64,000 bases of DNA from Azolla caroliniana (taxonomy: Eukaryota > Plantae > Polypodiophyta), in assembly GCA_043228905.1 (NCBI GenBank), contig JBHGNT010000016.1, positions 18,600,001 through 18,664,000 of the forward strand, read 5' to 3'. How positions within the stretch are numbered: position 1 is the stretch's first letter; the number at the start of each line of letters is the position of its first letter. Positions 4,029 to 64,000 of the stretch are shown here, in pieces. Below the pieces are notes generated by a model, which saw only the letters and a program-made list of their open reading frames with translations, was not told the DNA's origin and did no database searches. Made by a program: the position numbers and the translations under genes.

Positions 4029-4292
4029 TGTCAGGAATAGTACTAAAACAGAGATGGAATTAGTACTAAGAAGAGTAGTACTATTAGTACTAAGAGGACG
4101 GGACTGCGTAAGATTCCCGAGAGAGAGGAAGTGAGAAGAGGAGAGAGAGAGAAATAGGATGATGACAGCAGCTCTTATATTATATGAAAGATAAGTACAA
4201 ATCGACTAAGAGGCTTAAGACTGGTGTTGAACCAATTTGGTTCAAAACAATGCCTTGTGCCTCCTTTTATAGTGTTTTTAGGAAATAATCTT

Positions 4293-4310
4293 GAAGCTTC
4301 TAGAATGTTC
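4293..4310. promoter_or_regulatory. Heat-shock element in LTR of A (second copy 9521-9538)
   Basis: GAAgcTTCtaGAAtgTTC, four perfect alternating nGAAn units ~20 bp upstream of TATAAAAG (element orientation). Confidence 0.75.
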
Positions 4311-4386
4311 CAGAGAGATCTGGAATATACATCAATTTTCTATGATAAAGTATAAATGAAAATAATATCCTACAAAATACAATTCC

Positions 4387-4445
4387 TAATCTAATGGTAA
4401 GAGCTCGACCCATGTAGCATAAAGTCATGGGTTCGAGTCTTGCCA
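4387..4445 (+). promoter_or_regulatory. tRNA-like A-box/B-box cassette in LTR of A (second copy 9615-9673)
   Basis: TAATCTAATGG, 34 nt, then TTCGAGTC, ending GCCA; spacing equals tRNA positions 20-53. Confidence 0.6.
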
Positions 4446-4461
4446 TGACACTATCTCCCCC

Positions 4462-7400: not shown

Positions 7401-8043
7401 CCTTGTCAAATACATCGGCATAAGGATGATATTTTGCCGGAAGTTGTATTGAGGAGTCCTTCTTAATAGTGCTAGAAGGATGTACTGATATGGCAAATAG
7501 GAACATTGCCTCCTTGGGTCCTTCTTCGCGTAGTTGATGGAGTGAAATGGTCGAAACTCGGTGAGTTGATTCTTGGGGTGGTCGATATCGGACTTCTCTT
7601 GTTCTCCAATCTATGGCTGGATTATGTAATTCAAGCCAAGGTAATCCTAGGACAATGGGATGCTCTGGACTACTAATTATATTAAATGATATTATACACA
7701 CAAAACTACCTAGGACAACTTGAATGGGTTCTGATTCTTCTACAATATTCCCGGAAGCAATGGGACGACCATCAATGACCACTACAGATGCGGGACAAGG
7801 AAGTTTTCTTAAGGATATCTGAGAAGCTTGGGCAAAATTTCGATCCATGAAACAGGAATTAGCTCCGGAATCTAAAAGTGCTAGGACGGGTACTGGGGGA
7901 GTACTTTTAGTACTAACAATGACTTGGGCTAGGAACACATTGCTAACTTGCTTGGAAGGAATGGAACCACTAATGGGCTGTACAGATCTAGGGCTGCTGT
8001 CCAACCAAATGGCTCCTATTTTGGCTGGACTCAATCGTTTAAC
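4462..8043 (-). CDS. pol: Pol (protease-RT-RNase H-integrase-chromodomain), expressed by -1 frameshift from gag
   Basis: LLDSGA, YLDD, ADASD, HHCC zinc finger, SDRGPQF, GPF, chromodomain YEVAAILDSK..YYLVDWLGY..TWEP; 1190-codon open frame. Confidence 0.95.
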   Translation of the reverse strand, partial: VKRLSPAKIGAIWLDSSPRSVQPISGSIPSKQVSNVFLAQVIVSTKSTPPVPVLALLDSGANSCFMDRNFAQASQISLRKLPCPASVVVIDGRPIASGNIVEESEPIQVVLGSFVCIISFNIISSPEHPIVLGLPWLELHNPAIDWRTREVRYRPPQESTHRVSTISLHQLREEGPKEAMFLFAISVHPSSTIKKDSSIQLPAKYHPYADVFDKVKAGTLPHHRPYDCPIDLQPGTEPPWGPIYNLSPTELEVLRAYIEENLASGFIRHSKSPAGAPIFFVKKKDGSLRLVVDYRGLNKVTIRNRYALPLISSLLERVNGAKFFTKIDLRGAYNLVRIRPGDEWKTAFRTRYGHFEYTVMPFGLTNAPAVFQHMANDIFRDLLDICLIIYLDDLLIYSKTQEEHDSHVLLVLKRLRENGLYAKLEKCSFDCKQVEFLGYVISSKGIAMDPAKIQTVLEWQIPRSVRDVQCFLGFANFYRKFIQDYSKIILPLTQLTKKGQAFLWSIEADMAFRHLKKAFTSAPILAHVDTSKPFIMEADASDFALGSILSQQGDKEELHPVAFHSRKFNVAEINYEIHDKELLAIVDSFVQWRHFLEGSPHQVIVFSDHKNLAYFQNARVLNRRQARWAQFLTRFNFEITYRPGKQQGKADALSRRSYLAPRPGDATFDNQKQVILGPTRLHTTQIFHTPMDSRITDDIRATLKTDSFAQDILAHIDTSRASCSQSQQPGIDYRQFEYHDGLLFFKKRVYVPDCSCRLQIVQHCHDTHTAGHFGSTKTLELVQRSFWWPHMRRFVDDYVRTCDACCRAKMPRHHPYGLLEPLPIPSKPWQSICLDFITDLPVSKGFDAILTVVDRYTKMAHFVPCTKAITSEETAALVMREVFRHHGLPDSIISDRGPQFVSKFWQHLFRMLKVSCNLSSGYHPQTDGQAERTNQTLEQYLRCFLSYQQDDWAEILHFAEFAYNNAIHSSTRVSPFLAYTGFHPRWSVIDTPELPTNPRAEDHLERLRKIQMDLSTHLRHAQHTQKTYADRHRIPSSFAIEDRVWLLRRHIKTTRPCDKLDYRRLGPFRITGKINDVTFRLDLPPQLQIHPVFHCSLLEPYKANTIPDRVTPPPPPLELDDGPEYEVAAILDSKLVRNKLYYLVDWLGYSPSERTWEPVENVANAQDLLVDFHRKYPDKPGPQLAPTRSTRRL

Positions 8044-9188
8044 TCTTCATCTAATTGACTAAGGATTTCAAATTTATTTGAGATACTTGGGCTATTAGTA
8101 CTATGAATACTATCTGACACTCTATTAGTACTATTAATACTATCAGACACTCCAAAGGGAAGAATTGACTCGGGTTTAGTACAGGCGACGATTTGATTTA
8201 CCTGTCTTCTTGGCCTATGGGGACAATTGATGGCGATATGTCCTGGTCCACCGCAATAAAGACATAATCGATTGGCACGTCGTTGTTGCTTTTCTTCTTC
8301 CGATAACGGGCCGCGTCGACGCATGGTATCGATCTCCATCGGTGTCGAAGTATTTGCTTGAGGTGTGTCTCGTGCAAACGGTTTAGCCGCGACTGCGGCG
8401 TAAGTGGGCTCTGGCCTCGAGCGTGGTATCTGTAATTGACGTTCTGAACGCCGTTCAAAAAGGCGGTTGTCACATCGAACTGCTCGACTTATTGCCTCCG
8501 TAAGAGACTTTGGTTCTTCGGGGAAAGTTAGAAGTAGATCTTTGACATCGTTTCGCAAGCCATAGCGAAACTGCTCCATTAGTGCTTGATCATCCCAGGG
8601 TATATCTGAAGCAAGTAGGCGGAAATCCGCCGCGTAGGCAGAGGCTGGACGATCGCCTTGACGCAATCGCCGGATCTTGTTGATCGCCGTCCTGATGCTG
8701 TCGGTGTCTCCAAAGCAGGCTTTAAACTCACCAATAAAATCTTCAAAATTATTAAGTAAGGGTGATTGTTTTTCTAGAAGCGGAGCAAACCATGCCAAGG
8801 CTGAGCCGCTAAGTAGCGTGCCTATTAGGCCGACTCGAGATGCATCAGTGGGATATCGGGAAGGATGCATCTGGATGACTAAGCGTACCTGATTAAGGAA
8901 TCCCCGGAATTGCGAACGCGTTCCATCAAATTTCACAGGAAGTCCAATCTTGGGCTCTTTATGAAATCCTTGGGGACTGGATCCTTGTTGTTGCAACGCT
9001 GCTTCGAGTTGTTGTACCCGTAACGCTAACTCCCCATGTTGTTGTTGCGTTTGTTGTTTTTCTAGAGCGATTTGTTGCAGATCCCCTATCAGCCGTTGGT
9101 TTTCTTGTTCCAGGGCAACAAACTTTTCTTTTAGGCACTGTAACTCGGAGAAAACGGATTGGTATTCTTGGGCGCTAACAGTAGCCAT
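8031..9188 (-). CDS. gag: Gag (coiled coil, capsid, CCHC knuckle)
   Basis: 385 aa; PVKFDGTR..F, LSGSALAW, LRQG..ASAYAADF, CLYCGGPGHIAINC. Confidence 0.95.
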   Translation of the reverse strand: MATVSAQEYQSVFSELQCLKEKFVALEQENQRLIGDLQQIALEKQQTQQQHGELALRVQQLEAALQQQGSSPQGFHKEPKIGLPVKFDGTRSQFRGFLNQVRLVIQMHPSRYPTDASRVGLIGTLLSGSALAWFAPLLEKQSPLLNNFEDFIGEFKACFGDTDSIRTAINKIRRLRQGDRPASAYAADFRLLASDIPWDDQALMEQFRYGLRNDVKDLLLTFPEEPKSLTEAISRAVRCDNRLFERRSERQLQIPRSRPEPTYAAVAAKPFARDTPQANTSTPMEIDTMRRRGPLSEEEKQQRRANRLCLYCGGPGHIAINCPHRPRRQVNQIVACTKPESILPFGVSDSINSTNRVSDSIHSTNSPSISNKFEILSQLDEELND

Positions 9189-9242
9189 AGTATAGGGGAA
9201 AGGGTAGGAGGATGAGGGAGAGTGACAAGTAGGCTAGAGGAA

Positions 9243-9254
9243 AAATTGGTTCAA
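9243..9254 (-). promoter_or_regulatory. Self-priming PBS of A (TTGAACCAATTT)
   Basis: No TGG start; exactly complementary to AAATTGGTTCAA at 9466-9455, 33 nt after TATA. Confidence 0.85.
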
Positions 9255-12034
9255 ACTGTCAGGAATAGTACTAAAACAGAGATGGAATTAGTACTAAGAA
9301 GAGTAGTACTATTAGTACTAAGAGGACGGGACTGCGTAAGATTCCCGAGAGAGAGGAAGTGAGAAGAGGAGAGAGAGAGAAATAGGATGATGACAGCAGC
9401 TCTTATATTATATGAAAGATAAGTACAAATCGACTAAGAGGCTTAAGACTGGTGTTGAACCAATTTGGTTCAAAACAATGCCTTGTGCCTCCTTTTATAG
9501 TGTTTTTAGGAAATAATCTTGAAGCTTCTAGAATGTTCCAGAGAGATCTGGAATATACATCAATTTTCTATGATAAAGTATAAATGAAAATAATATCCTA
9601 CAAAATACAATTCCTAATCTAATGGTAAGAGCTCGACCCATGTAGCATAAAGTCATGGGTTCGAGTCTTGCCATGACACATACAAAACCAGGATAATCAG
9701 GCTACCATCTCCTGCCTTCTTGGTGTACAAGCAGTGGTCCACTTGACTTCTATGAAAACCTTGAGAATGTATCAAATTCATGATACCATTCTCTTGGTGC
9801 TTGTTTCAACCCATACAAACTCCTTTTGAGCTTACAAACTATATTCTCTTTGCCTTTAGCCACAAAACCTTCATGCTGCTGCATATATATGTCTTCATGC
9901 AGATCGCCATGTAAAAAGGCGGTCTTCACATTCATCTGTATGAGCTCCATTTCCCATCACCAAAGTTTGTGTGAAATCCATCATCATCTAGTTGTCCTGT
10001 GCTAATCAAGCTCTTCTTGAGCTGAGGTACATGCCATACATGCTGAAGTGTGAAAGCAGAACCATGCTGAAACTGTAATTGCACAGTGCCAATACCTACA
10101 ATTTCACATGCATAGTTGTCCCCAAGATGGGCAACACCATGTCGACCCCCTGTGTAATTTGAAAACCACTCACGATGAGGGGTGAATTGAAAAGAAGCAC
10201 CGGAATTGAGTATCCAAGTGTGCATGTCACCATCCGTATTTGCAAGTAAAGCATGTTCTCTATGGCATGAAGAGACAAAGAGTACATCATTTCCACTATC
10301 ACTATCATGAATGACTACATTCACCTCTTCAATTTTAGCATTGCCTTTCCTTGATTGAATGTCTCTCTTTTCTTCTATGAAATCATCTATCTTCTTGCCC
10401 TTTCCTTTCTCTTTCTTCCATTTGAAACAATCACATTTAAAGTGACCCTTTTTGCCACAATGATGGCATTCTACATCTTTACCACGTGATTTACTATGGC
10501 CATAACTATCAGATTTGCCTCTCTATTGTGACCTACCCCTCATATGCAATGCACTAGAGGGCTTATTGGATGCATTTTTTTGCCGACTCATCTCTTCCAT
10601 GAGTAGAGAACTCTCTACATCAGCATAAAGAAGCATCACATTTGAATTGCTCATAGAAGTCCTGAAAGTATCCCAACTTTTTTGGCAAGGTGCAAAGTAA
10701 AAACGTGGCCTTAAACTCATCTTCAATGATAAATTTCAAGGCAACCAGCTGGCTGAAAATGAAATTGAACTCACTTAGGTGAGTGGACATGGGTGTGCCC
10801 TCTGTCATGCGCAAATCCATAAGTTTCTTAAGCCAATAAACTTTGCTAGCCGCCGTATTCTAGGCATACAGTTCCTCTAGTCTAGTCCATATAGAATCTA
10901 GGAAGAGTCCAAACCTTCAATATTAAACATCAAGGCATCAGAAATTGACAACTCAATAGTCGAGTGTGCAAGGTCGTTCAACTCTTGCCAATCATCTTGG
11001 TCTATATCTATAGGCTTTACCCCTTTGACCTTAATAGGCTTTGCATGCTTCTTCTACAATCGGATGTTGTAACACTGCTTTTTCCATAACGCAAAGTTAT
11101 GTGCACTCTCAAGCTTCCTAATGTGCATAAGGTGGCTACTGTCACTGATGCTAGTCATGATTTCTTAGCCCAAACAGAGGACCAAACCTGCTTTGCAGAA
11201 AACGTGACCCGCTCTACAAAATAAAAGACATGTTTTGCAGAAAAAACGTGACTTGCTTTCAGAAAACCCTAAACCCTGCTCTGATACCAGTTTGAACGGC
11301 AACATGAGGATAGGGTTTAGGTCAGTCAAACAGGGAGAGAGTTTGAGTGAGAGAGAAAGGGGGGGGGGGGGGGGGGGGGGGAGAGAGAGAGATTGTCTTG
11401 GGTACAAAGAGTGTACCACTTTTTTGGTTTTTAGATATTATGTATATAGAAGTCAAAAATGTGCTACGAGTGCGTTCACACTTGTGCACTAATAAAAGGC
11501 ACGATGACCCTTTATTCCCAACACTTAGAGCCATCCAATTGGCAACTTATAACCAAAAACACAATCACGAATCATAACTGTTGTTGTTTCTAGAAATCTT
11601 GAAAATAGGTCCACTTAACTAAATCTGCAAAATATATAGCATTTAATTGTCATCAAAATGGCCTATATACATACATCTTTGACATGTAAACCATATAGGA
11701 TCAATGACAAGCCAAAGTGAGACAAAAGTCGATCTTGGTGGTTGCGCCATCTATCGTTTATTTGAGGTATTCACTTAAAGATTTGGCCATATCACTCGAT
11801 GATTGAATTTTTAACCATAAAAAAACTAGTAAATTAATTGAATCATACATAAATATGAGGAAATATGGCCTTATACACAAGTGATTGCCACACACATCAA
11901 CATATTAAGATATTTCAAGATGAAACTTTCAAGTGAAATTAATATATCCATGGGTGCCACTAGGCACAAATACATGTTTAATCTTACTTATATTTGAGGT
12001 TGTATCACCTCAACATGCTCATAGTAGACATATA

Positions 12035-19559: not shown

Positions 19560-21535
19560 CACCCGATATTGTTCTAGTCGGATTCAAACACGAGTCGAAT
19601 CGGCTTGTTATTGGACAATTGAATCTGTCGATTTGATTCCGATGTTGATCATAGATTTTGTGCCGATTATCTAGGTCGATCCTGATTCGGGTGACTGCAA
19701 TGATGAGAGGGACGGAGCCGACTGGTCCTCCCAAATGTCGTTCGGTCGAATGAAGCACGGATAGGGGTTGTTCCCTGGAGCTGGATCTGCTTTGAGATGT
19801 TACAACAAATGAGTAGATAGTGTCTAAACTGGTAAAGCATGATCGAGGCCAATTTGATAGAGATTCCACTCTGAGTGGCTTCATTCACAGAAGCAAGGTA
19901 TTGTTGGTTGGCTTACCTTAAGAATGATCTAGCTTGGTGGAGTGCAAATCTTCTATTCTTTTTCTCTTTTCAAGATGAGATCTTGAACTTAGGTTCTTCA
20001 AGGGAGACGAAGCAAGAATGCTAATGAAGACTGATGACAGATGGAAGCGAGTTGAAGAACCTCTGCTCTGATACAAGATGTTGTGAACTAAGGCCGTCAG
20101 TGCCGAGCATCAACACCACTTTGAGATGAAGATCACCAAGTGTACAAATGAACGCAAGATCGAAGAACAGAATGAGAGAGAGGGAGAGATCAAGAGGCAT
20201 TTTATTCAATGGTTACAATACTGTAACAATGGAGGCAACAATTCTCTTACAATATCAACAACCTTATGACCTAGGTTACAAAGCCTGTAATATACTAATT
20301 GAGCTAGGGCAACTGCCCTTTGACATATTTACATAAATGTGCTACACCTAGTTTGTCCAAGGGAACAATGTGAATACGACCATTATATGCCCATATTTGA
20401 CACTCTCTTCTGGCTACCATCCCCAAATGGATGGACAAGCAGAATGTAGAAATCAAACGCTAGAGCAATATCTTTGGTGTTTCATAAGCTATCAACAAGA
20501 TGATTGGGCAGATATATTACACTTTGCCGAATTTGCATATAATAAATTTATCCACTCCTCTATTAAGGTGACACCATTCTATGTGTATATAGGCGATCTT
20601 CCTCGTTGGTGTTTATTTGAAAATCTCGAATTACCCACGAATTCTAGTGCACAGGATCATTTGGAGTGACTACGCAAGATTTAGGCAGAACTGTCTAACC
20701 ATCTACATCAAGCCCAACAAACATAGAAGGACTATGCAGATTGTCATTGGCGTCCATCTTGTTTCGATATTGGAGATTGAGTATGACTATTACGACGGCA
20801 AGAAAAGAAAACCCGATCATGTGCCAAATTGGATTATCAAAGGCTAGGCCTTTTTATTATTAACAGAAAAATCAATGATGTCACATTTCGTCTTGATCTA
20901 CCTTCGCAATTACGGATACATCCGGTATTTTATAGTTCTCTCCTAGAACCATGTCAGAAAACCTCTATTCCAAATTGTACTACACCACCATCTCCAATTG
21001 AACTTGACGACGGACCTGAGTACGAAGTTGTTGCCATCCTCGATTCCAAGATAGTTCGTAATAAGCTCTACTATTTGGTGTATTGGTTAGGATATAGTCC
21101 AAGTGATCGTACTTGGGAACTAGTCGAGAATGTGGCAAATGCTTGAGCACTTCTTGAGGATTTCCATCGATAGTATCCAGATAAACCAGGTCCTCAGTCA
21201 AAGATGTCTCGTAAAACTTGTTGTTCAAAAGGGGGGGATAGTGTCACGATATGGCCCCAAAAAGAATTGAACCTGTGACCGTATGTTTCACAAGTTGATA
21301 CCATTAGGATAACAATTGTAATATAAAATATATTCTTTTCATTACAGAAAATTCATGTATATTCTAGATTACTTCGGAACATTCTAGAAAATTCGGGAAT
21401 ACTCTTGATAATACTATAAATAGAGGCATATGGCACTAATCAGAACCAATTCAGTTCAACGCTTATCTTAAGCCTATTAGCTATCCTTGTACTCTTTTTA
21501 TATAATATACTTCTTTGTTATCATACTTCTCTCTT

Positions 21536-21601
<66 letters not shown>

Positions 21602-21638
21602 GGACTAATCCTCTCAGTCTCTAGTACTACTCTTGACA

Positions 21639-37830: not shown

Positions 37831-38880
37831 ATGTCATTGCTCCACTATCCTATTTTGTATCATTTGATGTGCCAATATTTTCTTCCGAAAGAACTTGATT
37901 GTTCGTTGTAGCAGCTATCTCCATCGGTGTTGATGTGTCAATAGAGAAGTAGAAAAAGTTTGAAAGCTGAAATTCTAGCTCCATGTTACGATGTTTCTTC
38001 CCCTCAAGTATAAATACCTACATAGCTCCAACTTTGTCACTTTGCAATTCTTCTGTCCTTTCGACATTTTCCATCTTCATGTCGCTTATATCACTGCTAG
38101 GACAATTACGATCTACACCTTGTTACTGTTTTGCATCATTTACATATCAAATAGATTGTTTTTAGTGTGGATCTTTTGTCTATCTATGTTTCCTCTTTCA
38201 CCATTGTTGTGAAGTTATTGCTTCACGATGTCAAAACAATGTCAAAAATCTATAGAAATAAATTTCCCATATGGAGCTTGTGGCGAGGAGCATATGGACA
38301 TTTTCGGTTCTTGAATCGGAGTTCAAGAGCCCAAGATACAAGCTTCGGAAGGATTAATGCTACTCGGGACACAAATGTAATTATGTCGAAAGGGGAAGTC
38401 AAAACTAAATGAGGGCTATTTCTATAATTTCTCAAATGTACAACTACAAAATTGAATTTGTAGAATCAATAAATAAAATAATAGTTCTTCTTGAGGGGCG
38501 GTAAGATATGGTGGCATCCGAAGAAATGGAATGGCTCACCACTCTAGGTGGTGACAAGGAAAGAGGACCGGTAGGAGCTTCTGTCGGAATTTCATGAGAG
38601 TCCCTGGTCCGGACATCGAGGGATGTGGGCGACATTCGAGAAGTTGAAGGAGAGGTACTAGTGGCTAGGGATGTACAAGGGTGTACACCAGTTCGTGACG
38701 ATATGCGAGAGTTGCCAAGTGCATTCCATAATTCGGCACCGAGATGAGTGTTGGTGTCAGGAACTCTATTAAGGCAGAGAAGGAATTAGTACTAAAAGAA
38801 GGATTAGTACTATTGTCGGGGAATAGTACTAAGACAGAGAAGGATTAGTACTATGAGAGGTGTCGAACTTTGAGAGAAGG

Positions 38881-38931
<51 letters not shown>

Positions 38932-39050
38932 TGATGCGAAAGATATATGTATTATATGAAGGAAGATATACAACAGTGGTTAGAAGGCTTAAGACTGGCG
39001 TTGAACCGATTTGGTTCGAACTAATGCCTTGCGCCTCCTTTTATAGTGTC

Positions 39051-39083
39051 TTCAGGAATACTCCTGAAGTTTCTAGAATGTTC
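39051..39083. promoter_or_regulatory. Heat-shock element array in LTR of B (second copy 44361-44393)
   Basis: TTCagGAAtaCTCctGAAgtTTCtaGAAtgTTC: seven in-phase units, one mismatch. Confidence 0.75.
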
Positions 39084-39157
39084 CAGAGAAATCTGGAATA
39101 TACATCAATTTCCTAATAAAACCTAAATGAAAATAATATCCTTCAAATTACAATTCA

Positions 39158-39210
39158 TAACCTAATGGTAAAGTCTCGACCCGTGTAACAAAAGGTTATG
39201 GGTTCGAGTC
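39158..39210 (+). promoter_or_regulatory. tRNA-like A/B-box cassette in LTR of B (second copy 44468-44520)
   Basis: TAACCTAATGG, 34 nt, TTCGAGTC. Confidence 0.6.
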
Positions 39211-39213
39211 TAG

Positions 39214-42200
39214 TTATGACACTATCCCCCCTTTAAAACGACGAGTTCCACGAGTCGTTTTGGATTGAGGACCCGGTTTCTCGGGATATCGTCGATGGAA
39301 GTCTTCTAGAAGAGCACGAGCATTGGTCACATTCTCGATCGGTTCCCAAGTACGCTCGCTGGGACTATATCCTAGCCAATCGACTAGATAGTAGAGCTTG
39401 TTGCGAACAATCTTGGAATCGAGGATGGCAGCGACCTCATACTCAGGTCCATCTTCGAGCTCGATAGGAGGTGGTGGTTGTATAGTACGTCCTGGGATAG
39501 TGCTCTCGTGATAGGGTTCGAGGAGAGAACTATGAAACACCGGATGTATCCGAAGTTGCGGAGGTAGCTCGAGACGAAAAGCGACATCATTAATCTTCCC
39601 GATAATACGGAAAGGACCTAATCGCCGATAATCCAACTTCTCACATGGGCGAGTAGTCTTGATGTGTCGTCGTAGCAGCCACACCCGATCTCCAATGTTA
39701 AAACTGGATGGAAGTCGATGACGATCTGCGTAGTCCTTGTGTGATTGTTGAGCTTGCTGGAGTTGAGTAGATAAATCCGCTTGTATCTTGCGTAACCGCT
39801 CCAAACGATCCTCCGCGCAAGGATTTGTGGACACTTCTGGGGTTTCAAGGACACACCACCGGGGATGATATCCTGTATAAGCGTAGAATGGCGTGACTTT
39901 AGTCGATGCGTGGATAGCGTTATTATAGGCAAATTCGGCGAACTGAAGAATATCTGCCCAGTCATTCTGATGATAGTTGAGAAAGCACCGCAGATACTGC
40001 TCCAGTGTTTGATTTGTTCGTTCGGCTTGACCGTCGGTTTGTGGGTGGTAGCCGGAGGAGAGGTTACAAGTGACCTTCAGCATTTTAAAAAGGTGCTTCC
40101 AGAATTTTGACACAAACTGGGGTCCACGATCGCTGATGATATTATCAGGGAGTCCATGATGCCGACATACTTCCCGCATGACAATTTCGGCGGTGTCTTC
40201 ACTAGATATTTCTTTAGTACATGGTAAGAAATGAGCCATCTTCGTATATCGATCCACCACTGTGAGAATCGCACTGAATCCCTTAGAGACTGGAAGATCT
40301 GTAATGAAGTCAAGAGCAATGGATTGCCATGGCTTGCTTGGAATTGGTAATGGTTCTAATAAACCATATGGATGATGTCTTGGCATTTTCGCTCTGCAGC
40401 ATGTATCGCAAGTCCGAACAAAATCTTCGACAAATTGTCGCATACGGGGCCACCAGAATGATCGTTGTACTAAATCTAATGTTTTAGTACTACCAAAATG
40501 TCCTGCTGTATATGTGTCATGGCAGTTTTGTACTACTCGAAGGCGGCAAGAACCATTAGGAACATACAAAAGTTCTTTAAAGAAGAGTAATCCATCACAG
40601 TATTTGAATTGCCGATAATCCGTACCTGGTGATTGTGATTGTGAACATGACGCTCGAGAGGGGTCAATTTGTGCTAGTATAGCTTGGGCGAAAGCGTCAG
40701 TCTTCAAGTCCTCACGTATAGTATTGGTAATGTCGGAATCCACGGGCATGTCAAAGACCTGTGCTGCTTGCAGTCGTGCTGGACCCAAGATTACTTGCTT
40801 CTGGTTATCGAAAGCTGGCTCACCGGGACGTGGTGTTAGATACGAACGCCGTGATAATGCATCTGCCTTCCCTTGGTGCTTCCCCGGACGATATGTAATT
40901 TTGAAGTCGAAGCGTGTGAGGAAGTGGGCCCACCGAGCTTGACGTCGATTCAGTACACGAGCATCTTGAAAGTAGGCAAGGTTCTTGTGGTCACTGAATA
41001 CAGTGACCTGATGAGGAGATCCCTCCAGGAAATGCCTCCATTGCATAAAAGAATCAACTATTGCTAATAGCTCTTTATCATGAATTTCGTAGTTGATTTC
41101 GGCGGCGTCAAACTTACGGGAGTGGAAAGCCACAGGATGTAGCTTCTCGTCGTTACCTTGTTGTGACAGAATGCTCCCCAATGCGAAATCCGATGCGTCA
41201 GCTTCGATAATGAATGGTTTTTCCGGATCCACATGACCTAAAATTGGAGCTGATGTAAACGCCTTCTTAAGACTCTCGAAAGCCATGTCCGTCTCTTTAG
41301 ACCAGATGAATGATTGTCCCTTCCTGGTGAGCTGTGTGAGAGGCAGCACAATTTTTGAGTAATTTTGTATGAACTTCCGGTAAAAATTTGCAAAGCCTAG
41401 GAAGCATTGCACATCCCGCACCGAACGCGGAGTGTGCCATTCTATCACCGTTTTGACCTTGGCTGGGTCCATAGATATGCCTTCTGAGGAGATGACATAG
41501 CCGAGAAACTCCACTTGGTTGCACCCGAAACTACATTTCTCTAACTTTGCATACAGACCATGTTCTCGAAGTCGTTTTAGTACTAATAGTACATGAGAAT
41601 CATGTTCTTCTTGGGTCTTTGAATAAACCAGTAGATCATCCAAATAGATGATCAAAAAATCATCCAAGAGATCTCGAAATATATCATTCGCCATGTGCTG
41701 GAAGACTGCCGGCGCATTAGTGAGTCCGAACGGCATGACCGTATACTCGAAGTGCCCATATCTGGTGCGAAACGCGGTCTTCCATTCATCTCCTGGTCGG
41801 ATCCGTACGAGGTTATAGGCTCCTCGTAAGTCGATCTTCGTGAAGAACCTAGCACCGTTGATCCGTTCTAAAAGACTTGAGATAAGGGGAAGAGCATACC
41901 TATTTCTTACTGTGACCTTATTCAAGCCACGGTAATCTACAACGAGTCGAAGCGAGCCATCTTTTTTCTTGACGAAGAAAATGGGTGCGCCGGCTGGAGA
42001 TTTCGAATGCCGAATGAAACCGTTCTCCAAATTCTCCTCTATATAGGCTCGAAGGACTTCTAGCTCGGTTGGTGACAAATTGTAGATCGGCCCCCATGGC
42101 GGCTCTTTTCCCGGTTGTAAGTCGATGGCGCAATCGTACGGCCGATGATGAGGAAGTGTGTTGGTTTGTACTTTATCGAACACATCAGCATACTGATGAT

Positions 42201-42810
42201 ACTTCTCGGGAAGTTGAACGGTGGACTCCTCTTTGGTGGTGCTGGAGGGTTGTACTGATATTGCGAAGAGAAACATTTCCTCCTTGCGCCCTTCCTCACG
42301 CAACTGACGTAGCGAAATGGTTGCAACCTTCTGGGTAGATCCTTGGGTTTGTCGCAACTGGATTTCCCTTGTCCTCCAATCTATGTCTGGGTTATGTAAC
42401 TCGAACCATGGTAATCCTAAAACTATGGGATGTTCTGGAATACTAATAATATTAAATGATACTACACATGTTAAGTTATCTAGGACAATATTAACGGGTT
42501 CCGACTCTTCTATGATATTACCAGAAGCAATGGGACGACCATCAATGACTACTACTGAGGCTGGACATGGGAGCTTTCTGAGAGATATCTGATGAGCTCG
42601 GGCAAAATTCCTATCCATGAAGCAAGAATTAGCTCCGGAATCTAGAAGGGCTAAGGTATGTACTGGAGGGGTACTTTTAGTACTAACTGCTACTTGGGCT
42701 ACGAACACATCACTAACTTGCTTAGAGGGAATGGAACCACTAATGGGCTGCACAGATCTAGGGCTGTCCAACCAAACGGCTCCTATTTTGGCTGGACTTA
42801 GTCGTTTAAC
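39214..42810 (-). CDS. pol: Pol (PR-RT-RH-INT-chromodomain), -1 frameshift product
   Basis: LLDSGA, YLDD, ADASD, SDRGPQF, chromodomain; uninterrupted frame. Confidence 0.95.
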   Translation of the reverse strand, partial: VKRLSPAKIGAVWLDSPRSVQPISGSIPSKQVSDVFVAQVAVSTKSTPPVHTLALLDSGANSCFMDRNFARAHQISLRKLPCPASVVVIDGRPIASGNIIEESEPVNIVLDNLTCVVSFNIISIPEHPIVLGLPWFELHNPDIDWRTREIQLRQTQGSTQKVATISLRQLREEGRKEEMFLFAISVQPSSTTKEESTVQLPEKYHQYADVFDKVQTNTLPHHRPYDCAIDLQPGKEPPWGPIYNLSPTELEVLRAYIEENLENGFIRHSKSPAGAPIFFVKKKDGSLRLVVDYRGLNKVTVRNRYALPLISSLLERINGARFFTKIDLRGAYNLVRIRPGDEWKTAFRTRYGHFEYTVMPFGLTNAPAVFQHMANDIFRDLLDDFLIIYLDDLLVYSKTQEEHDSHVLLVLKRLREHGLYAKLEKCSFGCNQVEFLGYVISSEGISMDPAKVKTVIEWHTPRSVRDVQCFLGFANFYRKFIQNYSKIVLPLTQLTRKGQSFIWSKETDMAFESLKKAFTSAPILGHVDPEKPFIIEADASDFALGSILSQQGNDEKLHPVAFHSRKFDAAEINYEIHDKELLAIVDSFMQWRHFLEGSPHQVTVFSDHKNLAYFQDARVLNRRQARWAHFLTRFDFKITYRPGKHQGKADALSRRSYLTPRPGEPAFDNQKQVILGPARLQAAQVFDMPVDSDITNTIREDLKTDAFAQAILAQIDPSRASCSQSQSPGTDYRQFKYCDGLLFFKELLYVPNGSCRLRVVQNCHDTYTAGHFGSTKTLDLVQRSFWWPRMRQFVEDFVRTCDTCCRAKMPRHHPYGLLEPLPIPSKPWQSIALDFITDLPVSKGFSAILTVVDRYTKMAHFLPCTKEISSEDTAEIVMREVCRHHGLPDNIISDRGPQFVSKFWKHLFKMLKVTCNLSSGYHPQTDGQAERTNQTLEQYLRCFLNYHQNDWADILQFAEFAYNNAIHASTKVTPFYAYTGYHPRWCVLETPEVSTNPCAEDRLERLRKIQADLSTQLQQAQQSHKDYADRHRLPSSFNIGDRVWLLRRHIKTTRPCEKLDYRRLGPFRIIGKINDVAFRLELPPQLRIHPVFHSSLLEPYHESTIPGRTIQPPPPIELEDGPEYEVAAILDSKIVRNKLYYLVDWLGYSPSERTWEPIENVTNARALLEDFHRRYPEKPGPQSKTTRGTRRFKGGIVS

Positions 42811-43967
42811 TCTTCTTCTAATTGGCTAAGGATATCAAATTTGTTTGCGAGATTCGGACTATTAGTACTATTAGGACTATTATGACTATGAGGACTATCA
42901 GAGATTCCTACTGAAATAGACTCGGGTTTAGTATAGTCAGAACTAACAACGACTTGGTTTACCTGCCTTCTTGGTCTATGGGGACAGTTTATCGCGATAT
43001 GCCCTGGTCCACCGCAATAAAGGCATAATCGGTTTGTTCGGCGTCGTTGCTTTTCCTCCTCCGATAGCGGCCCACGACGACGTGTAGTGTCAATTTCCAT
43101 TGGAGTTGGAGTACTTACTGGAGGCGCATTATGTGACTCCCTTTGAAAAGGTTTCGCTACCACTGAGGCATAGGTAGGCTCGGATCTTGCCCTCGGCATC
43201 TGAAATTGTCGTTCCGAACGTCGCTCGAAGAGGCGGTTGTCACATCTGACCGCTCGACTGATTGCTTCTGTTAATGATTTTGGCTCTTCAGGGAAAGTCA
43301 AGAGTAAATCCTTGACATCGTTGCGTAGACCATAGCGGAACTGCTCCATCAATGCTTGATCATCCCAGGGGATATCGGCGGCGAGTAGGCGGAAATCTGC
43401 AGCATATGCGGAGGCTGGACGGTCACCTTGGCGTAATCGCCGGATTTTATTGATTGCAGTCCTTATGCTGTCAGTATCTCCAAAACATGCTTTAAACTCA
43501 CTTATGAATTCTTCAAAATTATTTAGTACTGGAGATTCCTTTTCTAGTAGCGGAGCGAACCATGCTAATGCTGAGCCATTTAACAACGTGCCTACTAAAC
43601 CCACTCGTGATGCATCGGTGGGATATCGGGACGGATGCATTTGAATAACTAACCGTACCTGGTTAAGAAACCCTCTAAACTGCGATCGCGTTCCATCGAA
43701 CTTCGTGGGAAGGCCAATCTTGGGTTCTTTATGAATCCCTTGTGCTCCGTGCCCTTGTTGTTGCATTGCTACGATGGTTGCTTCGAGTTGTTGCACGCGT
43801 AACGCAAGTTCCCCATGCTGTTGTTGCGTTTGCTGCTTTTCTAAGGAAATTTGCTGAAGATCCCCCAACAAGCGTTGATTTTCTTGTTCCAAAGCATGAA
43901 ACTTCTCTTTCAAGCATTGAAATTCCGAGAAAACGGATTGATACTCTTCAGCGCTAACGGTGGCCAT
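42798..43967 (-). CDS. gag: Gag
   Basis: 389 aa, close paralog of gag A, CLYCGGPGHIAINC. Confidence 0.95.
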   Translation of the reverse strand: MATVSAEEYQSVFSEFQCLKEKFHALEQENQRLLGDLQQISLEKQQTQQQHGELALRVQQLEATIVAMQQQGHGAQGIHKEPKIGLPTKFDGTRSQFRGFLNQVRLVIQMHPSRYPTDASRVGLVGTLLNGSALAWFAPLLEKESPVLNNFEEFISEFKACFGDTDSIRTAINKIRRLRQGDRPASAYAADFRLLAADIPWDDQALMEQFRYGLRNDVKDLLLTFPEEPKSLTEAISRAVRCDNRLFERRSERQFQMPRARSEPTYASVVAKPFQRESHNAPPVSTPTPMEIDTTRRRGPLSEEEKQRRRTNRLCLYCGGPGHIAINCPHRPRRQVNQVVVSSDYTKPESISVGISDSPHSHNSPNSTNSPNLANKFDILSQLEEELND

Positions 43968-44056
43968 GGGATGAAGGAAAAGGGGAATAAGAGACTAATA
44001 GGAAAGGAGGGAGACAGAAGGAAGAGGGAGAGAAAAGACCAGACAGGCACCGAGGG

Positions 44057-44068
44057 AAATCGGTTCAA
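44057..44068 (-). promoter_or_regulatory. Self-priming PBS of B (TTGAACCGATTT)
   Basis: Complementary to AAATCGGTTCAA at 44322-44311, 33 nt after TATA. Confidence 0.85.
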
Positions 44069-44196
44069 ACTGTCAGGAACTCTATTAAGGCAGAGAAGGA
44101 ATTAGTACTAAAAGAAGGATTAGTACTATTGTCGGGGAATAGTACTAAGACAGAGAAGGATTAGTACTATGAGAGGTGTCGAACTTTGAGAGAAGG

Positions 44197-44241
<45 letters not shown>

Positions 44242-47200
44242 TGATGCGAAAGATATATGTATTATATGAAGGAAGATATACAACAGTGGTTAGAAGGCTT
44301 AAGACTGGCGTTGAACCGATTTGGTTCGAACTAATGCCTTGCGCCTCCTTTTATAGTGTCTTCAGGAATACTCCTGAAGTTTCTAGAATGTTCCAGAGAA
44401 ATCTGGAATATACATCAATTTCCTAATAAAACCTAAATGAAAATAATATCCTTCAAATTACAATTCATAACCTAATGGTAAAGTCTCGACCCGTGTAACA
44501 AAAGGTTATGGGTTCGAGTCTAGTTATGACAGTTGGCATAAAAGGCCGACTCCTTCCACTTTGTATCCTAGTGTGAACTCGTCCATATAGTTAGGGCTTA
44601 GTATATAATCGATAACCTAACGTTGTAAAGAGTGTGCTTCTTGATCATTTTGGTAACAAGTCTTTGAGTTGAGAGAGAGAGAACAAAAATAGAGAGAGCT
44701 TCCGTTAAAGCGTCATCTATGTGTTTATATCTTTTTGCCTTCCTTCTGTGTTGTTTGCTGAGCATAACCGACAGATCCTCACATATGTTCCCGCGCATAT
44801 TTGTCCTTCCCCTAGTATCAGAGCGATCCGTAGCTTGGTGGCAACAAACAACAAAAAGAAAAGGCTGAAAGGAAAAAGACCAGGTTAGCAAATCTCACTT
44901 TGAAAAGAATCATGGCATCAACATCTGGTACAGGAGTTAGGATCCGAAAATTCGACGGGAAAAACTTTGCCCTATGGAAGGAGATGATGCAGGATGTACT
45001 GATTATTTGAAGACAGGTCGAGGCCATTCGACACACCGAAAAGCCTGCTTCAATGTCAACCGATGAGTGGAGATCAATGGAAAAAATCTCACGCTCCACC
45101 ATTTGAATGCACCTAGTAAAAAATTTCTACTTCAGCATGGCAAAAGAGACACCAACGTTCTCACTATGGGAGAAGCTACAAGCCGTGTATGACAAAAAGT
45201 CCTCATCTTCAAAATTGATCTTGATCAAACAACTGTTCAACATGAAGATGAGAGAGACCGATACGGCTACCTCTCACATCAACACCTTCAGCCGGGTGTT
45301 GTTAGAACTCTCTTCACAAGGGATCATTTTTGAAGAAGAAGTGAAAGCCCTTGCCCTCCTATCGAGCTTACCGATGAGTTGGGAGGTATTCTGCACGACA
45401 TACACCAATAGCTGACCGATCCTAAACTTGGATGAGACGATCGGCCAAGTCCTCACCGAGGACATTCAGTGAAAATCGATGGGACTTACCATCGATAAAT
45501 CGGCAAAAGCCCATCACTCGACCGAGTTGTTCGACTGACATTGTTGAACGAGAGAACAAGCCGATAGAACCGGTCGGAATACCAACCGATCAAAAACAAG
45601 GGGAGACTAACAATAGTCGAAGTCGAGAACAGGCCGATTAGGCGAATTCTGCACATATTGTAGAAAATGTGGCCACAATGTTTCCGACATTGGTCGATCA
45701 AGATGAAAGAGAGTGGTCGACGATTTGAGCGAAATTGAGGCCAACCTGATTCGAACCACTCTCCAGTTGGAAACCAAATCAACCTTGCTGACTCCCGATC
45801 AGGACAAATCCTCTCCTTAGAGGATTCAATGATTGGAGAAGTCCTATACTGTGCACAAGATGCACACACGTGGTTACTGGATTCCGGAGCCACATTCCAT
45901 GTGACCCCCAACATTGAATGGTTTTCGAACTATTCAGTTGGCGCCAACGGCACAGTCTGACTAGGCAATGGGCAGGAGTGCAAATTTGCAGGAACCAGAG
46001 AGGTTCCCATCTGATTGCCCAATGGCAACATGATCACCCTGCACCAACTCAAGCACGCACCCGATCTGAAAAGGAGTCTAGTCTCCATCGGTATGTTAGT
46101 CGAAGATGAGTACCGAACGAGTGTAAGTGAGTCGATATGGATGATCAACCAGGGTTTTGTTAGAATTGGGAATGGACACAAGTACAATAACCGAGGACAC
46201 AAGTCTTCACCGAGGACATTAGGCGAAAATCAATGGACTTACCATCGATGAACGAGTCATTTGACCGACATAGTAGAACGAGAGAACAAGTCGACAAAAC
46301 CAGTTTGAATACCAACCGATAAAAAACGAGGGGCCGATCAGGCGAATTCTGCACACACTGCAGAAAAGCTAGCCACAATGTTTCTGACAGTTGATCGATC
46401 AAGAGTAAAGAGAGTGGTCGGAGATCCGAGCGAAATCGAGGCCGACCCGACTCAGACCACTCTCTAGTAGGCAACCAAATCAACATTGTTGACTCCCGAT
46501 CAGGAGAAATTGTCTCCTTAGAGGATTCAATGATCGAAGAAGTTCTATATTGTGAACAAGATGCACACACATGGTTACTGAATTCCAGAGCCACATTCCA
46601 TGTGACCCCCAACATTGAATGGTTTTTGAACTATTCAGTCAACGCCAACGGCACAATCCGACTAGGCAATGGGCAGGAGTGTAGAATCGCAGGGACCGGA
46701 GAGGTTCCCATCTGATTGCCCAATGGCAACATGATCACCCTACACCAAGTCAGGCACATACCTGATTTGAAAAGGAGTCTGGTCTCCATAGGCATGTTAG
46801 CCGAAGAAGGGTATTGAATGACTCTAAGTGAGTCGATATCGATGATCAACCGGGGAAATCTCAGAATTGGGAGTGGACACAAGTACAATAACTTATACCC
46901 ATTAATGGTGATCAATCCAGAAGGGGCCGTGAACGTAGCCAAAAAGACCAACCCAAACTTATGGAATGGCCGACTCGGCCATATATCTCAAGCCAGACTC
47001 GATTGGCTGATGGCGGTTGGTTACATCCCTAAACTCCAAGCAAAGACAGACTTCTGCGAGCATTGTCGATACAGGAAACAGACCCGATTTCACACACTCT
47101 CCACTACGAGACGGTACATAAGGCCATAGAGCTCGTGCACAAATATATATGTGGGCCCATGCTAGAGCGATCACTAGGAGGCTCCCGGTACTTCATCACC

Positions 47201-52556: not shown

Positions 52557-52850
52557 TGTCGGGGTAGTTGTGGTTTGTCCGGCGAAGTCGCAGGGACTAA
52601 GGTTAAAGGGAGTTGACCAAACTTTTATAAGGCTTTGCGCACAAATGTTAGGAAGATTAAGGATAAGAAGAATAAGAGTTTAAAGTAATGTGTGAGAGAG
52701 AGATGAGCATAGATAAAAGATAGAGAGAATGTATGATTTAAGAAGAAAGAGTATAAGATATGAACATGATTTATATTAAAATAAGAAAACTAGTTTTTAC
52801 CAACATTACAATGCATTATAACAAGATGAACCCTTTCTCTACCGACTCTT

Positions 52851-52904
52851 GATTTGAACCCTTGACTCGAACTTGGAAACACGAGCCTCTTCACCAACAA
52901 GCTA
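52851..52904 (-). promoter_or_regulatory. Second, oppositely oriented tRNA-like cassette in H LTR
   Basis: Minus strand TAGCTTGTTGG, 35 nt, TTCAAATC. Confidence 0.55.
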
Positions 52905-53175
52905 ACTTGTTTATTTCATTAATTATGTTCTAACTTTCTCTTGAATCCCCTTTTATTTTCCTTTCCCCTCTTTTTATAAGTATTGTCATGCATATGGTAA
53001 TGTGTAAGAGCATGGCATGCATGTAATGCATAAGTTACATGTGATGCATGATCGCCATTTGGCGCACATGCATTACATGTGATGCATGATAGCCATCATG
53101 CTCATTTGAGCTCCCATGTATGAAAATATATATGGGATAAGTATAATGATGGATATAACCCTAAAACAAATAACC

Positions 53176-53232
53176 TAGCTTAGTGGTGTATGCTTTGTCC
53201 TTGATATACAAGGTTGAGGGTTCAAGTCCCTC
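53176..53232 (+). promoter_or_regulatory. tRNA-like cassette in H LTR (consensus A box, perfect T arm)
   Basis: TAGCTTAGTGG, 34 nt to TTC; T arm GAGGG-TTCAAGT-CCCTC. Confidence 0.7.
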
Positions 53233-60870: not shown

Positions 60871-62622
60871 TGTGAAAGGGATAGTTATTCGAAATCTATT
60901 TTAATTAAGTAGAATAGATTATAATTATGTAGTGACCGGACAGACTGGAATCGGTATGCCGATCCGGATCCGGACCGGTTCCGAACAGGTGCCGGTTGGC
61001 ACCGTTTTGTACGCAGCACCGGTGACCTATATAAAGTCCCGGTTACAATGTAAAACTTTAACTGAGAATTAATATAAGCTTCTTGTTTTATCTTCACGTA
61101 TTGATTACCGTTCTGTATTAATTGTTATATCTTACGCGTGTATTAAGTGAATGCCTTATTGCTAAGTAGCCAATTAAGTCGGATTAATCGTTGTGTCTTA
61201 AGTTATCTCACCGTAACACCCCTTTGGTGAAGTGTCTTCCGGAGACACCCTGTGTTAGGCCATTATCCGGCCCTAAGGATTAACACAGTTTTTGGCGACC
61301 ACGATTCCTGCACAATCGCAGTGAACAACGGTAGGAATGGATGACGCGACCAACAAACGACCCGGTTACGGTGCGAGCAAGGAGGCTTGCTGAACGGCTA
61401 AGGAAGCGAGAGGCTTTCCAGCAAGCGGCAGAAGAAATCAGAGCGGATCGCTCATTTTCCAAGGAGATCCGGAGAGTGGCCAAGGAGTCGCTTCGGCTAC
61501 CACAAAACGACTACCCAGACGAAGGAAGCAGCCTCCGGGACGCGGAATCCCTTCTCCAGGCATTGGCAATGGGCGAAGGCGAATCCGAAGCATTTTCGGC
61601 ATTTGAATCGGGTTTGGACGGGGAATACAGCACGCAGACAAACTACCGCAACAGTAACGACACCCTAGATGGACCAGAGGATGAGGAGTCGGAAACTTGG
61701 CCGACACCGGAACCAAAATTGACAACGTTGGAACCTCCGGCACCAAAGGTCGAGCACACTCCGGAACCAGAACCAGAAGTCGAGGACGAGAGACCTCCGA
61801 CATCGGAAGTCGTGGAGGAGAGACCTCCGACGCCGACAAAGGAAGGGGAAAGACCACCAACACCACCAAGCCGCGTACCAACACCAGATGACGATATGTC
61901 GTTCCAATATCCCAGATAACGGGATGATCTGGACATGGAAGCCCATGTCCATGCGTTTCAGCAGACCTAGGAGGCGAACCATGTGTCCCAACGCTTAAAT
62001 GCAGTCGAAGAGGAACACTCAAAAAGGGCAGAGTTCGGCATGACCTTGGAGGGACCGGCCGCCAGATGGCACCGAACACAAAATCCCAGCACCATCCCCA
62101 CGTTTGAAACATTAAAGACAAAAATTTTGCATTTCTTTCACAAGGAGATGGACCAATGGGAAATGGTAGGCTTATTTTACAATATCCGGCAAGAACCAAC
62201 GGAGAACATTCAACAATTTGTCATCCGGTTCCAGCGGATCCACAGTCAGCTCAGCCGGACACCACTGGAGGAAGAAACAAAGGCCATATTCTTAGCAGCC
62301 CTCCGGGAACCCTTACGTACGGTCTGCACAGTTATTGATTTCCGCACCAGCAGCATAGATCAAGTGATCGACCGAGTTCGGGAAATGGAAACCTCAAGTT
62401 CATGGCTAACCATAGGCGCACTTCAGCGTGCACTACCAACGGAAGAGGACCTCCGTTTCCGGCAAGCAATTCAATGTACGACATGCCTAAATGCCGGACA
62501 TTTGACGTTGGAATGCACCATGCGTTCCCAATGCTTGCTCTGCCACTCCAGAAGTCACACAATGGAACGGTGGGAGTATAACTTGTTAAATCGGCAAGCA
62601 CCACCGGTCTGGCAAATTGAAC
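60871..62622 (+). mobile_element. Ty3/Gypsy K: 5' LTR, tRNA-type PBS, gag with stops; interrupted by L
   Basis: LTR 60871-~61287; PBS TGGCGACCACG 61293-61303 (tRNA-Arg-like); retrotransposon-gag LEGPAARW, IRQEPTENIQQFVIRF; two CCHC knuckles. Confidence 0.8.
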
Positions 62623-62784
62623 TGTCATGAACACATGACCATTATGGCGTCACCCGGACTTGAACCTCGAACCTTGTAATCCATACTTGAAAACCTCAAC
62701 CATTAAGATAGCTTATTGTTATATGAAACAATATAACAAAGCTACTTCTTGAATTACATTGATTATTGTAAAAACTCTAGATTT

Positions 62785-62848
62785 TTCTAGAATGTTCTAG
62801 AATGTCCTAGAGCATTCTAGGTCTAGAACATTCTAGAACATTCTAGAA
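62785..62848. promoter_or_regulatory. Expanded heat-shock element array in L LTR
   Basis: TTCtaGAAtgTTCtaGAA...GAAcaTTCtaGAAcaTTCtaGAA upstream of TATAAAT (62874). Confidence 0.8.
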
Positions 62849-63082
62849 ATCTCTAAGATATTCTATAGGAACCTATAAATAAGGGCATACGTGTATTCTC
62901 AAATCAATTCGAATCAACACCAGTCTTTAGATCTCATTACATATCTTGTATCCATTCTCTTTCTTTCTCTATCTTATACATCCATTCTTCTCTTAGTATT
63001 TGGTTCCTTTCTTCTCGTGTTCTCTAATATCCTTCTTCCATCACTCTATCTTTTATCCTTGGTTCTGACAGTTTGATTCGAA

Positions 63083-63143
<61 letters not shown>

Positions 63144-63146
<3 letters not shown>

Positions 63147-63803
63147 AGATCCAAAAGACGCATAAAAGCAAAATTTTGTGTTCCGGTTGGATGCAAGATA
63201 TAGAAAAATGGTTTGGTAGATGGGATGCGAGACACTTGCTTCATGATGCATCATTAGATTCCTCTGTAAATGAGGCATTTTTGCAACGCCAATGTATCAT
63301 GACATGGGACAAATGTGGAGGCTCACGCTTCACACATTATACTACACATGTTGCACCTAACTACAAAACCATATTCTTCGCGGAAAGGGGAAATCGTACA
63401 CATCCATACATGTTAGAGCCCATACCGTTATCTGCCATTCGAACCATTGCTTCCATGCGACTTAGCTCACATGCATTGCGATGTGAAACAGGGCGTTGGG
63501 GTACAAGTGATGAGAGTGGTCGGCTATGCACACTTTGCCCTAAACAAGTTCGCGAGTCTGAGTATCACACTTTGATACAATGCTCTGCCTTTGATCATAT
63601 TCGACCATGCTTTCCACATCTCTTCGATCGAGCCCAATCTTTGCATGAATTCCTCTCACAACCACAATGTGCACTCTCGATTGCAACATTCATTGGTAAA
63701 GTTCTTGAACATCGAGAGTCACTACTCACTTTCACACGTATCACGTGAAATGTAATATTTTTGGTCTCATAGGTCATATTTGATCTCCGAAGACGATAAT
63801 ATA

Positions 63804-63832
<29 letters not shown>
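63144..63832 (+). mobile_element. 5'-truncated non-LTR retrotransposon (RTEX-like ORF2 C-terminus) with (TATC)n tail
   Basis: Open 190-aa frame with MRLSSHALRCETGRW..RLCTLC..ESEYHTLIQCSAF; tetranucleotide tail; candidate TSD TCTCAT. Confidence 0.75.
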
Positions 63833-63835
<3 letters not shown>

Positions 63836-63863: not shown

Positions 63864-64000
63864 ATGGCTGCCATTAACTCAGAAGAATATCTCACCCTTG
63901 TGGCAGAAATGGAGAACCTTAAATCCAAGTTCGCATCTCTTGAAGTAGAGAATCAACATCTACTTGGGGATCTACAAAAGGTTACTATAGAGAAGCAACA
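63864..64000 (+). CDS. gag: Gag N-terminus of chromovirus L (partial)
   Basis: MAAINSEEYLTLVAEMENLKSKFASLEVENQHLLGDLQ aligns to MATVSAEEYQ..LKEKFHALEQENQRLLGDLQ. Confidence 0.85.
   Translation, partial: MAAINSEEYLTLVAEMENLKSKFASLEVENQHLLGDLQKVTIEKQ

Follow-up and report, generated by a model that had tools for sequence, protein, structure and literature searches.

Introduction

Several LTR retrotransposons respond to heat, and the fungal element MAGGY of Magnaporthe reportedly moves or is activated at raised temperature. In the Brassicaceae, the Ty1/copia families ONSEN/COPIA78, TERESTRA, COPIA37 and ROMANIAT5 carry at least four adjacent nGAAn units in their LTRs; heat induction has been shown for these seed-plant families, as has HSFA2 binding for ONSEN, and their arrays arose by duplication of short motifs, with gain and loss within a lineage (PMC5059998). 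Ty3/gypsy elements may be wired similarly. In the flatworm Macrostomum lignano, the LTRs of Ty3/Mdg4 families contain canonical heat-shock elements (HSEs) upstream of the start, and both heat induction and the requirement for the HSE have been demonstrated there (PMC12801592). In Cryptococcus, Tcn12 and TCN3 move or are activated at raised temperature and bear putative HSEs in their LTRs (PMC9942834, PMC12810828). Other heat-responsive Gypsy elements are PHRE1/2 of bamboo (PMC8656106) and RLG2 of moss. The heat-activated Gypsy is already known in kind, having been validated in the flatworm and proposed for the Cryptococcus elements (PMC12801592, PMC9942834, PMC12810828).

Elements of the Tcn1 type have been found in mosses and club-mosses; their chromodomain has an aromatic cage and self-priming has been predicted for them (PMC6317226). 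Here, we describe HSE arrays in LTRs of Tcn1-like chromoviruses, named A, B, D and L, from a 64-kb stretch of DNA (hereafter, the window). Judged by this type of element, their host is probably a moss. Their arrays are perfect and multi-unit, whereas the Tcn12 site is of the imperfect step type and the action of HSF on it is putative (PMC9942834, PMC12810828). As in the ONSEN-type elements, at least three adjacent alternating nGAAn units lie in the LTR, upstream of both the TATA box and the predicted start, and arrays appear to be gained and lost within the lineage. In contrast to ONSEN, the lineage is a self-priming Ty3/gypsy chromovirus with a putative heat response, and its sister families have another array in the same slot. 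Our search of the open literature, which leaves subscription journals largely outside, found no report of HSE arrays in plant Tcn1 LTRs, nor of an exchange of HSE and ABA-type motifs in one LTR slot.

Results

Chromoviruses of the window

The window holds nested plant LTR retrotransposons, and their features relevant to this study are collected in Table 1. Elements A and B each have an unbroken gag frame and an unbroken frame for PR-RT-RH-INT-chromodomain, as recognised by Pfam domains, and in the chromodomain alignment Tyr/Phe, Trp and Tyr are retained at the places expected for the aromatic cage. The two LTRs of A are identical (422/422) and the element is flanked by the target-site duplication GTATG; those of B are identical over 461 nt except for a 6-nt TC slip, with CCAAC as the duplication. 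The original prediction held two copies to be young enough to be active. Their identical LTRs do show recent insertion, but such identity does not show present activity. More broken copies of the A/B lineage are nested among other elements at 49324-52557 (minus strand), 13255-13692 and 20403-21246 (both plus strand). It should also be noted that 29357-29850 is an exact 247-nt tandem duplication, possibly an assembly artefact.

Table 1. Positions of the elements, arrays and promoter features within the 64-kb window
Feature	Position	Strand	Remarks
A, full-length chromovirus	4029..9678	-	LTRs 4029-4450 and 9257-9678; gag and PR-RT-RH-INT-chromodomain frames
A arrays, four-unit	4292-4311, 9520-9539	-	Perfect over the whole length
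A TATA boxes	4266-4272, 9494-9500	-	
B, full-length chromovirus	38755..44531	-	LTRs 38755-39221 and 44071-44531
B arrays, seven-unit with one mismatch	39050-39084, 44360-44394	-	Perfect arrays at 39065-39084 and 44375-44394
D, 3' LTR of a decayed chromovirus copy	21242..21638	+	Five-unit array, perfect, 21376-21400; TATA 21414-21420
gag of unrelated host element, target of the L insertion, not part of L	61971..62622	+	Pfam Retrotrans_gag
L, 5' LTR (TGTCA...TGACA) of Tcn1-like chromovirus	62623..63070	+	Self-priming site and A-like gag downstream
Antisense tRNA-type Pol III promoter pair	62656..62710	-	A box 62699-62710; B box 62656-62666; 44 nt apart
L distal HSE block, seven units	62784..62818	+	Four perfect in a row (62784-62803); two units with one mismatch each
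L proximal HSE block, five perfect units	62825..62849	+	GAA 28, 38 and 48 nt before TATA
L TATA box, CTATAAA	62873..62879	+	Same place in all complete U3 regions
L predicted RNA 5' end and 12-nt self-primer	62906..62917	+	32 nt past the T of TATA; perfect complement of the post-LTR site
L primer-binding site, complementary to the element's own 5' end	63073..63084	+	Tf1-type self-priming (inferred)
Insertion of ~690 nt in the (TC)n leader of L	63142..63835	+	Likely LINE 3' fragment, (TATC)n tail
L gag start, continuing beyond the window end	63864..64000	+	A-like; L010-like

The LTR of L is followed by the self-priming site, a (TC)n leader with the ~690-nt insertion and an A-like gag from 63864, which shares 50% identity with residues 13-60 of the A gag. 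A related locus, L010, resembles L at 86% in the LTR, at 86% of DNA identity in the gag start, and in an array with the same break; beyond its gag, L010 encodes a pol with chromodomain, and it is free of the leader insertion. By this comparison L is a chromovirus, because L010 combines the same LTR, array and gag start with such a pol. The present copy of L is interrupted by the insertion in its leader.

Moreover, the placement of L was examined with contigs from four public runs, which are of uncertain kind and informative for presence and for LTR ends. Other contigs have loose ends at 62623 and at 63070; those that belong to the host element extend past 62622 with different letters. The gag at 61971-62622 gave no match to the A or B gag. 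Its assignment to L and a reading of L as a 3' LTR are ruled out by this lack of match, by the layout of L010 and by the contig junctions.

The insertion at 63142-63835 had no Pfam match; it is likely a LINE, judged from its C-terminal Cys/His motif and its tail. The same likely LINE occurs in three places (the window, L019:1279-1373 and L043:1302-1739), and in the window and L019 it lies directly behind a (TC)n stretch in the LTR or leader of a chromovirus, which suggests a LINE that targets microsatellites.

As for class, the order PR-RT-RH-INT with a C-terminal chromodomain was found by Pfam in A and B and, for L, through its relatives L010 and L046. With RVT_1, integrase in last position and a chromodomain, these elements are not Ty1/copia and hence not members of ONSEN/COPIA78; nor are they short non-coding TRIMs, given the gag and pol of A, B and L010. 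The RT core of A has 96 of 108 residues in common with that of SM-Tcn1 of Selaginella, as counted by eye. The elements fit a Tcn1-like assignment by domain order, chromodomain cage and self-priming, the trees described below being built without named Tcn1 references. SM-Tcn1 has the same layout as L, and its R start and primer site are almost those of L; it differs in carrying another tandem repeat in the slot before TATA and shows no perfect three-unit HSE by eye (PMC2864245). Its authors reported no priming site; read by eye, 12 nt at the R start are complementary to the sequence behind the 5' LTR, as in L (PMC2864245).

Perfect HSE arrays in four LTRs

Perfect alternating nGAAn/nTTCn arrays of at least three units occur at seven places in the window, and each lies within an LTR of A, B, D or L (Table 1). 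Their longest perfect runs comprise 4, 4, 5 and 5 units, respectively. In 30 dinucleotide shuffles of the window, 1.4 three-unit placements were expected against 16 observed, and 0.03 four-unit placements against 9 observed; when each U3 was shuffled, none of 2000 shuffles reached four units. The originally predicted arrays of A (four units), B (seven with one mismatch) and D (five), upstream of TATA, were re-found with the same counts. L had been described as one run of about 12 units and turned out to consist of a seven-unit and a five-unit block, 6 nt apart and out of register, the array as a whole spanning 25-90 nt ahead of TATA.

The LTRs had also been called four divergent ones. Arrays are indeed present in all four, but they are not independent, as the U3 regions are homologous: identity is 0.86 for A-B, 0.69 for A-D, 0.72 for B-D and 0.56-0.59 for L to A, B or D. 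A 13-nt core, GAACATTCTAGAA, is identical at 13/13 positions among A, B, D and L. Judged from the sequences, the four arrays are one inherited element with one origin, because the LTRs are homologous and the core is identical letter for letter; LTR homology rules out four independent gains.

Related loci and the content of the slot

Relatives were searched in metagenome contigs by the C-terminus of pol, so that the choice of loci was independent of the LTR. The 80 listed among 331 confirmed matches correspond to 77 loci, 34 of which gave a complete U3 (a contig end, a broken LTR or a differing frame accounts for the other 43). A search of IMG/VR gave 87 pattern matches and no confirmed relative. 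Together with the four LTRs of the window, the 34 U3 regions form 18 families at 85% identity. HSE sites are confined to the U3 regions of LTRs. Across the related loci, 92 HSE sites were counted in 25.9 kb behind the pol ends vs. 27 in 199.8 kb upstream, the majority of the latter in 5' LTRs.

Perfect HSE arrays precede TATA in 11 of the 18 families and a decayed HSE in one (L059), while the remaining six have alternative repeats in the slot. The repeated motif is GCCAAGTGGC, GCCAAATGGC or GCCACGTGGC and the spacers are rich in CATGC, which gives G-box/ACTT-like and RY-like motifs. The two types exclude each other: a G-box-like motif was found in 0/11 HSE families and an HSE in 0/6 alternative families. 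The alternative pattern was defined after the sequences had been viewed, which makes its shuffle counts generous, and the RY hexamer alone exceeds shuffles in just one of the six families. On the opposite strand, CCAAGTGG matches the ACTT-core element of moss, which depends on ABI3, at 8/10 bases. In Physcomitrium, ABRE plus RY is a known ABI3 input (PMC5601040). By this likeness of motifs, the alternative cassette is likely of the ABA/ABI3 type.

Four further observations concern the slot. The 3' LTR of L014 has an HSE array together with RY-like motifs, the array being shifted away from TATA, and is a possible intermediate. L055, L057, L058 and L064 are chromoviruses more distantly related, in which pol and the 3' LTR seem to be separated by an additional reading frame; HSE-like arrays stand at the very 5' end of their LTRs, not at the pre-TATA slot. 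The 3' LTRs of L066, L068-L070, L072, L075 and L077 belong to a further clade, whose U3 has GGACTTTTCCC-like repeats and which may represent a third cassette type. Finally, a non-chromovirus Gypsy LTR of the window (~52646-53396, minus strand) bears a pre-TATA 18-nt G-box-like plus RY-like motif (~53046-53063), the same as in alternative-type chromovirus LTRs; the cassette may be common to several lineages.

Promoter geometry, predicted self-priming and antisense boxes

For the minus-strand elements A and B, the arrays stand upstream of CTATAAA when read in the element's own sense. In A, B, D and L alike, TATA follows the end of the last three-unit site at a distance of 15-25 nt. In 13 of 15 readable cases, a stretch inside the LTR is perfectly complementary to the 12 nt that follow the 5' LTR; this complement comes in four versions, in which changes on one side are matched on the other, and from it we infer self-priming of the Tf1 type. 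The RNA start predicted by the self-primer lies 32-33 nt after the T of CTATAAA, the usual spacing in plants. The array would thus occupy the position of an activator site, since the start is predicted by the self-primer, evidence that is independent of the array. Moreover, the distance of the proximal GAA from TATA is 8 mod 10 nt in 9/11 HSE family representatives, which belong to two pol clades; common ancestry in the absence of indels may account for this register.

The 5' edge of the LTR holds a second conserved feature. Within the first 90 nt of U3, antisense A and B boxes, scored with tRNA-type consensus patterns, are spaced by 43-44 nt in 17 of 18 family representatives, and for 15 of 18 no more than 3 of 200 shuffles matched or exceeded the best pair. 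In the LTRs A, B, D and L and in the related loci, both boxes are conserved while the bases between them drift. Rfam gave no tRNA match in L and ARAGORN no tRNA gene in the 64-kb window. The LTR at ~52646-53396 contains an antisense tRNA-like stretch as well (53176-53232), with an Rfam tRNA match of 22 bits (E 0.018) that stays under the gathering score. The boxes recall Helenus/TRIMp3, in which a tRNA-like Pol III promoter sequence lies inside the LTR; that element is non-coding and its Pol III promoter is proposed to make the template RNA (PMC10886601). The A/B/D/L lineage differs in its antisense boxes, coding capacity and TATA promoter. One guess is that the boxes, which may be a Pol III or TFIIIC element, act as a TFIIIC boundary shielding the promoter in heterochromatin.

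History of the slot

To follow the slot along the phylogeny of pol, rows of at least 560 residues with a scored LTR were retained, giving a tree of 24 rows and 963 columns; an earlier, shorter tree had 48 rows, with 19 representatives lacking a scored LTR left out. Slot labels were assigned from the LTRs before the trees were built, and the shorter tree was viewed before the topology tests. HSE families fall in two pol clades, one of which groups with six alternative-type rows; two weaker alternative-type rows, L050 and L052, stand outside both HSE clades. A single clade for all HSE rows was rejected (AU p = 0.0075), as was one for all eight alternative rows (p = 1e-7). The six inner alternative rows form a weakly supported group (70/62), their monophyly being neither shown nor rejected. 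The pol tree requires at least two slot switches.

The slots of the two HSE clades have a similarity of 0.68 to each other vs. 0.54-0.55 to the alternative type; in the same comparison between groups, the flanking LTR parts are too short to show recombination. The trees were built on metagenome contigs of multi-copy families, which are possibly chimeric and could then blur this history; each pairing recurs in several contigs from separate assemblies. The simplest reading of these trees would be one old HSE cassette, replaced once in a sub-lineage by the likely ABA/ABI3-type cassette, plus one change at the base of the group.

Structure of the array

The arrays are best read as an HSF-responsive promoter of a Ty3/Gypsy chromovirus, and we regard this reading as probable. 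The original prediction had assumed that variable positions differ between families while GAA/TTC is kept. This fails in the core, where GAACATTCTAGAA is the same in A, B, D and L, and among 10 family representatives several spacer positions are conserved 10/10, equal to or above the GAA/TTC bases. Spacer variation as a sign of selection is ruled out by this conservation.

Conserved spacers are also what a plain tandem repeat would give. The array could be a palindromic 10-nt repeat with a TTCTAGAA core, grown by slippage in a repeat-prone U3 slot, whose likeness to an HSE is accidental. Consistent with this, the near-identical LTRs of L007 and L012 differ by whole 10-nt units, L and L046 differ by 26 nt within the array, and a further, different tandem repeat fills this slot in SM-Tcn1 of Selaginella (PMC2864245). 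However, two pol clades retain the core in register with TATA, despite a U3 identity as low as that of L to A, B and D. In the short arrays of A, B and D, with 4-5 perfect units, a 10-nt duplication is not visible, and a perfect array of whatever origin is what HSF binds. We hold an accidental likeness to be improbable.

The most invariant stretch of the array is an 8-nt palindrome with a TA spacer, the TTC-nn-GAA spacer being TA in 29/36 dyads, as it is in the TTCTAGAA core of plant HSF motifs. Another host factor recognising TTCTAGAA, or a structural signal of the LTR unrelated to stress, might account for such a palindrome. Yet the 5-nt alternation goes on past it into head-to-head dyads with varied spacers (CA 16, TA 6, TG 4, others 5; n = 31), and sister families replicate without the repeat, which shows that the repeat is not needed for the retrotransposon cycle. 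This explanation appears very improbable, and we retain the HSF-responsive promoter.

Discussion

The motif, its position and the predicted start suggest the following sequence of events. Trimers of a host HSF would bind the four- and five-unit blocks of the LTR U3 and, once bound, would drive Pol II from the TATA box 25 nt downstream, in heat or in a related protein-damaging stress. The RNA would start 32 nt after TATA, and its first 12 nt would fold onto the site behind the LTR and prime reverse transcription as in Tf1. The array would lengthen and shorten by slippage of its 10-nt unit, and in six sister families its slot is filled by the G-box/ACTT-like and RY-like repeats. Precedents exist for the central step: targets of bryophyte HSFA1 bear GAAnnTTC (PMC9516188), and in Macrostomum mutation of the HSE abolished the heat response (PMC12801592).

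HSFs may also bind the array without heat activation, through repression by class B HSFs, through action in drying, oxidative stress or development, or through silencing by the host. Depending on context, HSFB proteins are repressors or co-activators (PMC9516188). Furthermore, of six HSE-bearing LTR families in Macrostomum, four were strongly heat induced, all four Ty3 ones included, and two were not, so that an HSE is not sufficient there (PMC12801592). The moss chromovirus RLG1 of Physcomitrium patens was even reported to be heat-repressed (PMC7466625). By eye, however, the first 400 nt of RLG1 show G-boxes and no perfect three-unit HSE, and it was dropped as a direct counter-example. Moreover, four or more perfect units form the strongest class in ONSEN-type LTRs, and among plant LTRs activation is strongest from four-unit arrays beside TATA (PMC5059998). 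We give binding without heat activation a minor, though not negligible, chance, and continue to favour a heat-responsive promoter.

RLG1 also bears on the alternative cassette. A perfect G-box lies just before its TATA, and ABA did not raise its expression (15-22 vs 22-26 in BCD protonema; PMC7466625, its Table 1). A reading from motifs can therefore fail, because a pre-TATA G-box was here accompanied by no rise with ABA.

The exchangeable slot is the newer part of our findings, and it is likely that these elements trade one host stress signal for another. A wider model, which we put forward tentatively and consider possible rather than probable, would view the LTR as a modular promoter chassis, with an antisense tRNA-type (TFIIIC) boundary at the 5' edge, a slot whose stress enhancer can be exchanged, a TATA box that stays fixed, and the self-primer. 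By swapping the slot, sister families would split the heat (HSF) and ABA/ABI3 drying signals between them.

If the HSF reading is true, heat-wired LTR elements would extend from crucifer Copia and flatworm Ty3 families to a young and abundant chromovirus lineage of a non-seed plant. This lineage would offer matched natural promoters, with a common frame, TATA box and start site and one differing slot of heat or ABA type, and these would allow the switching of stress input to be tested directly by exchange of cassettes. It could likewise be tested whether solo LTRs confer responses to heat or drying on the genes of their hosts, plants for which heating and drying out are routine.
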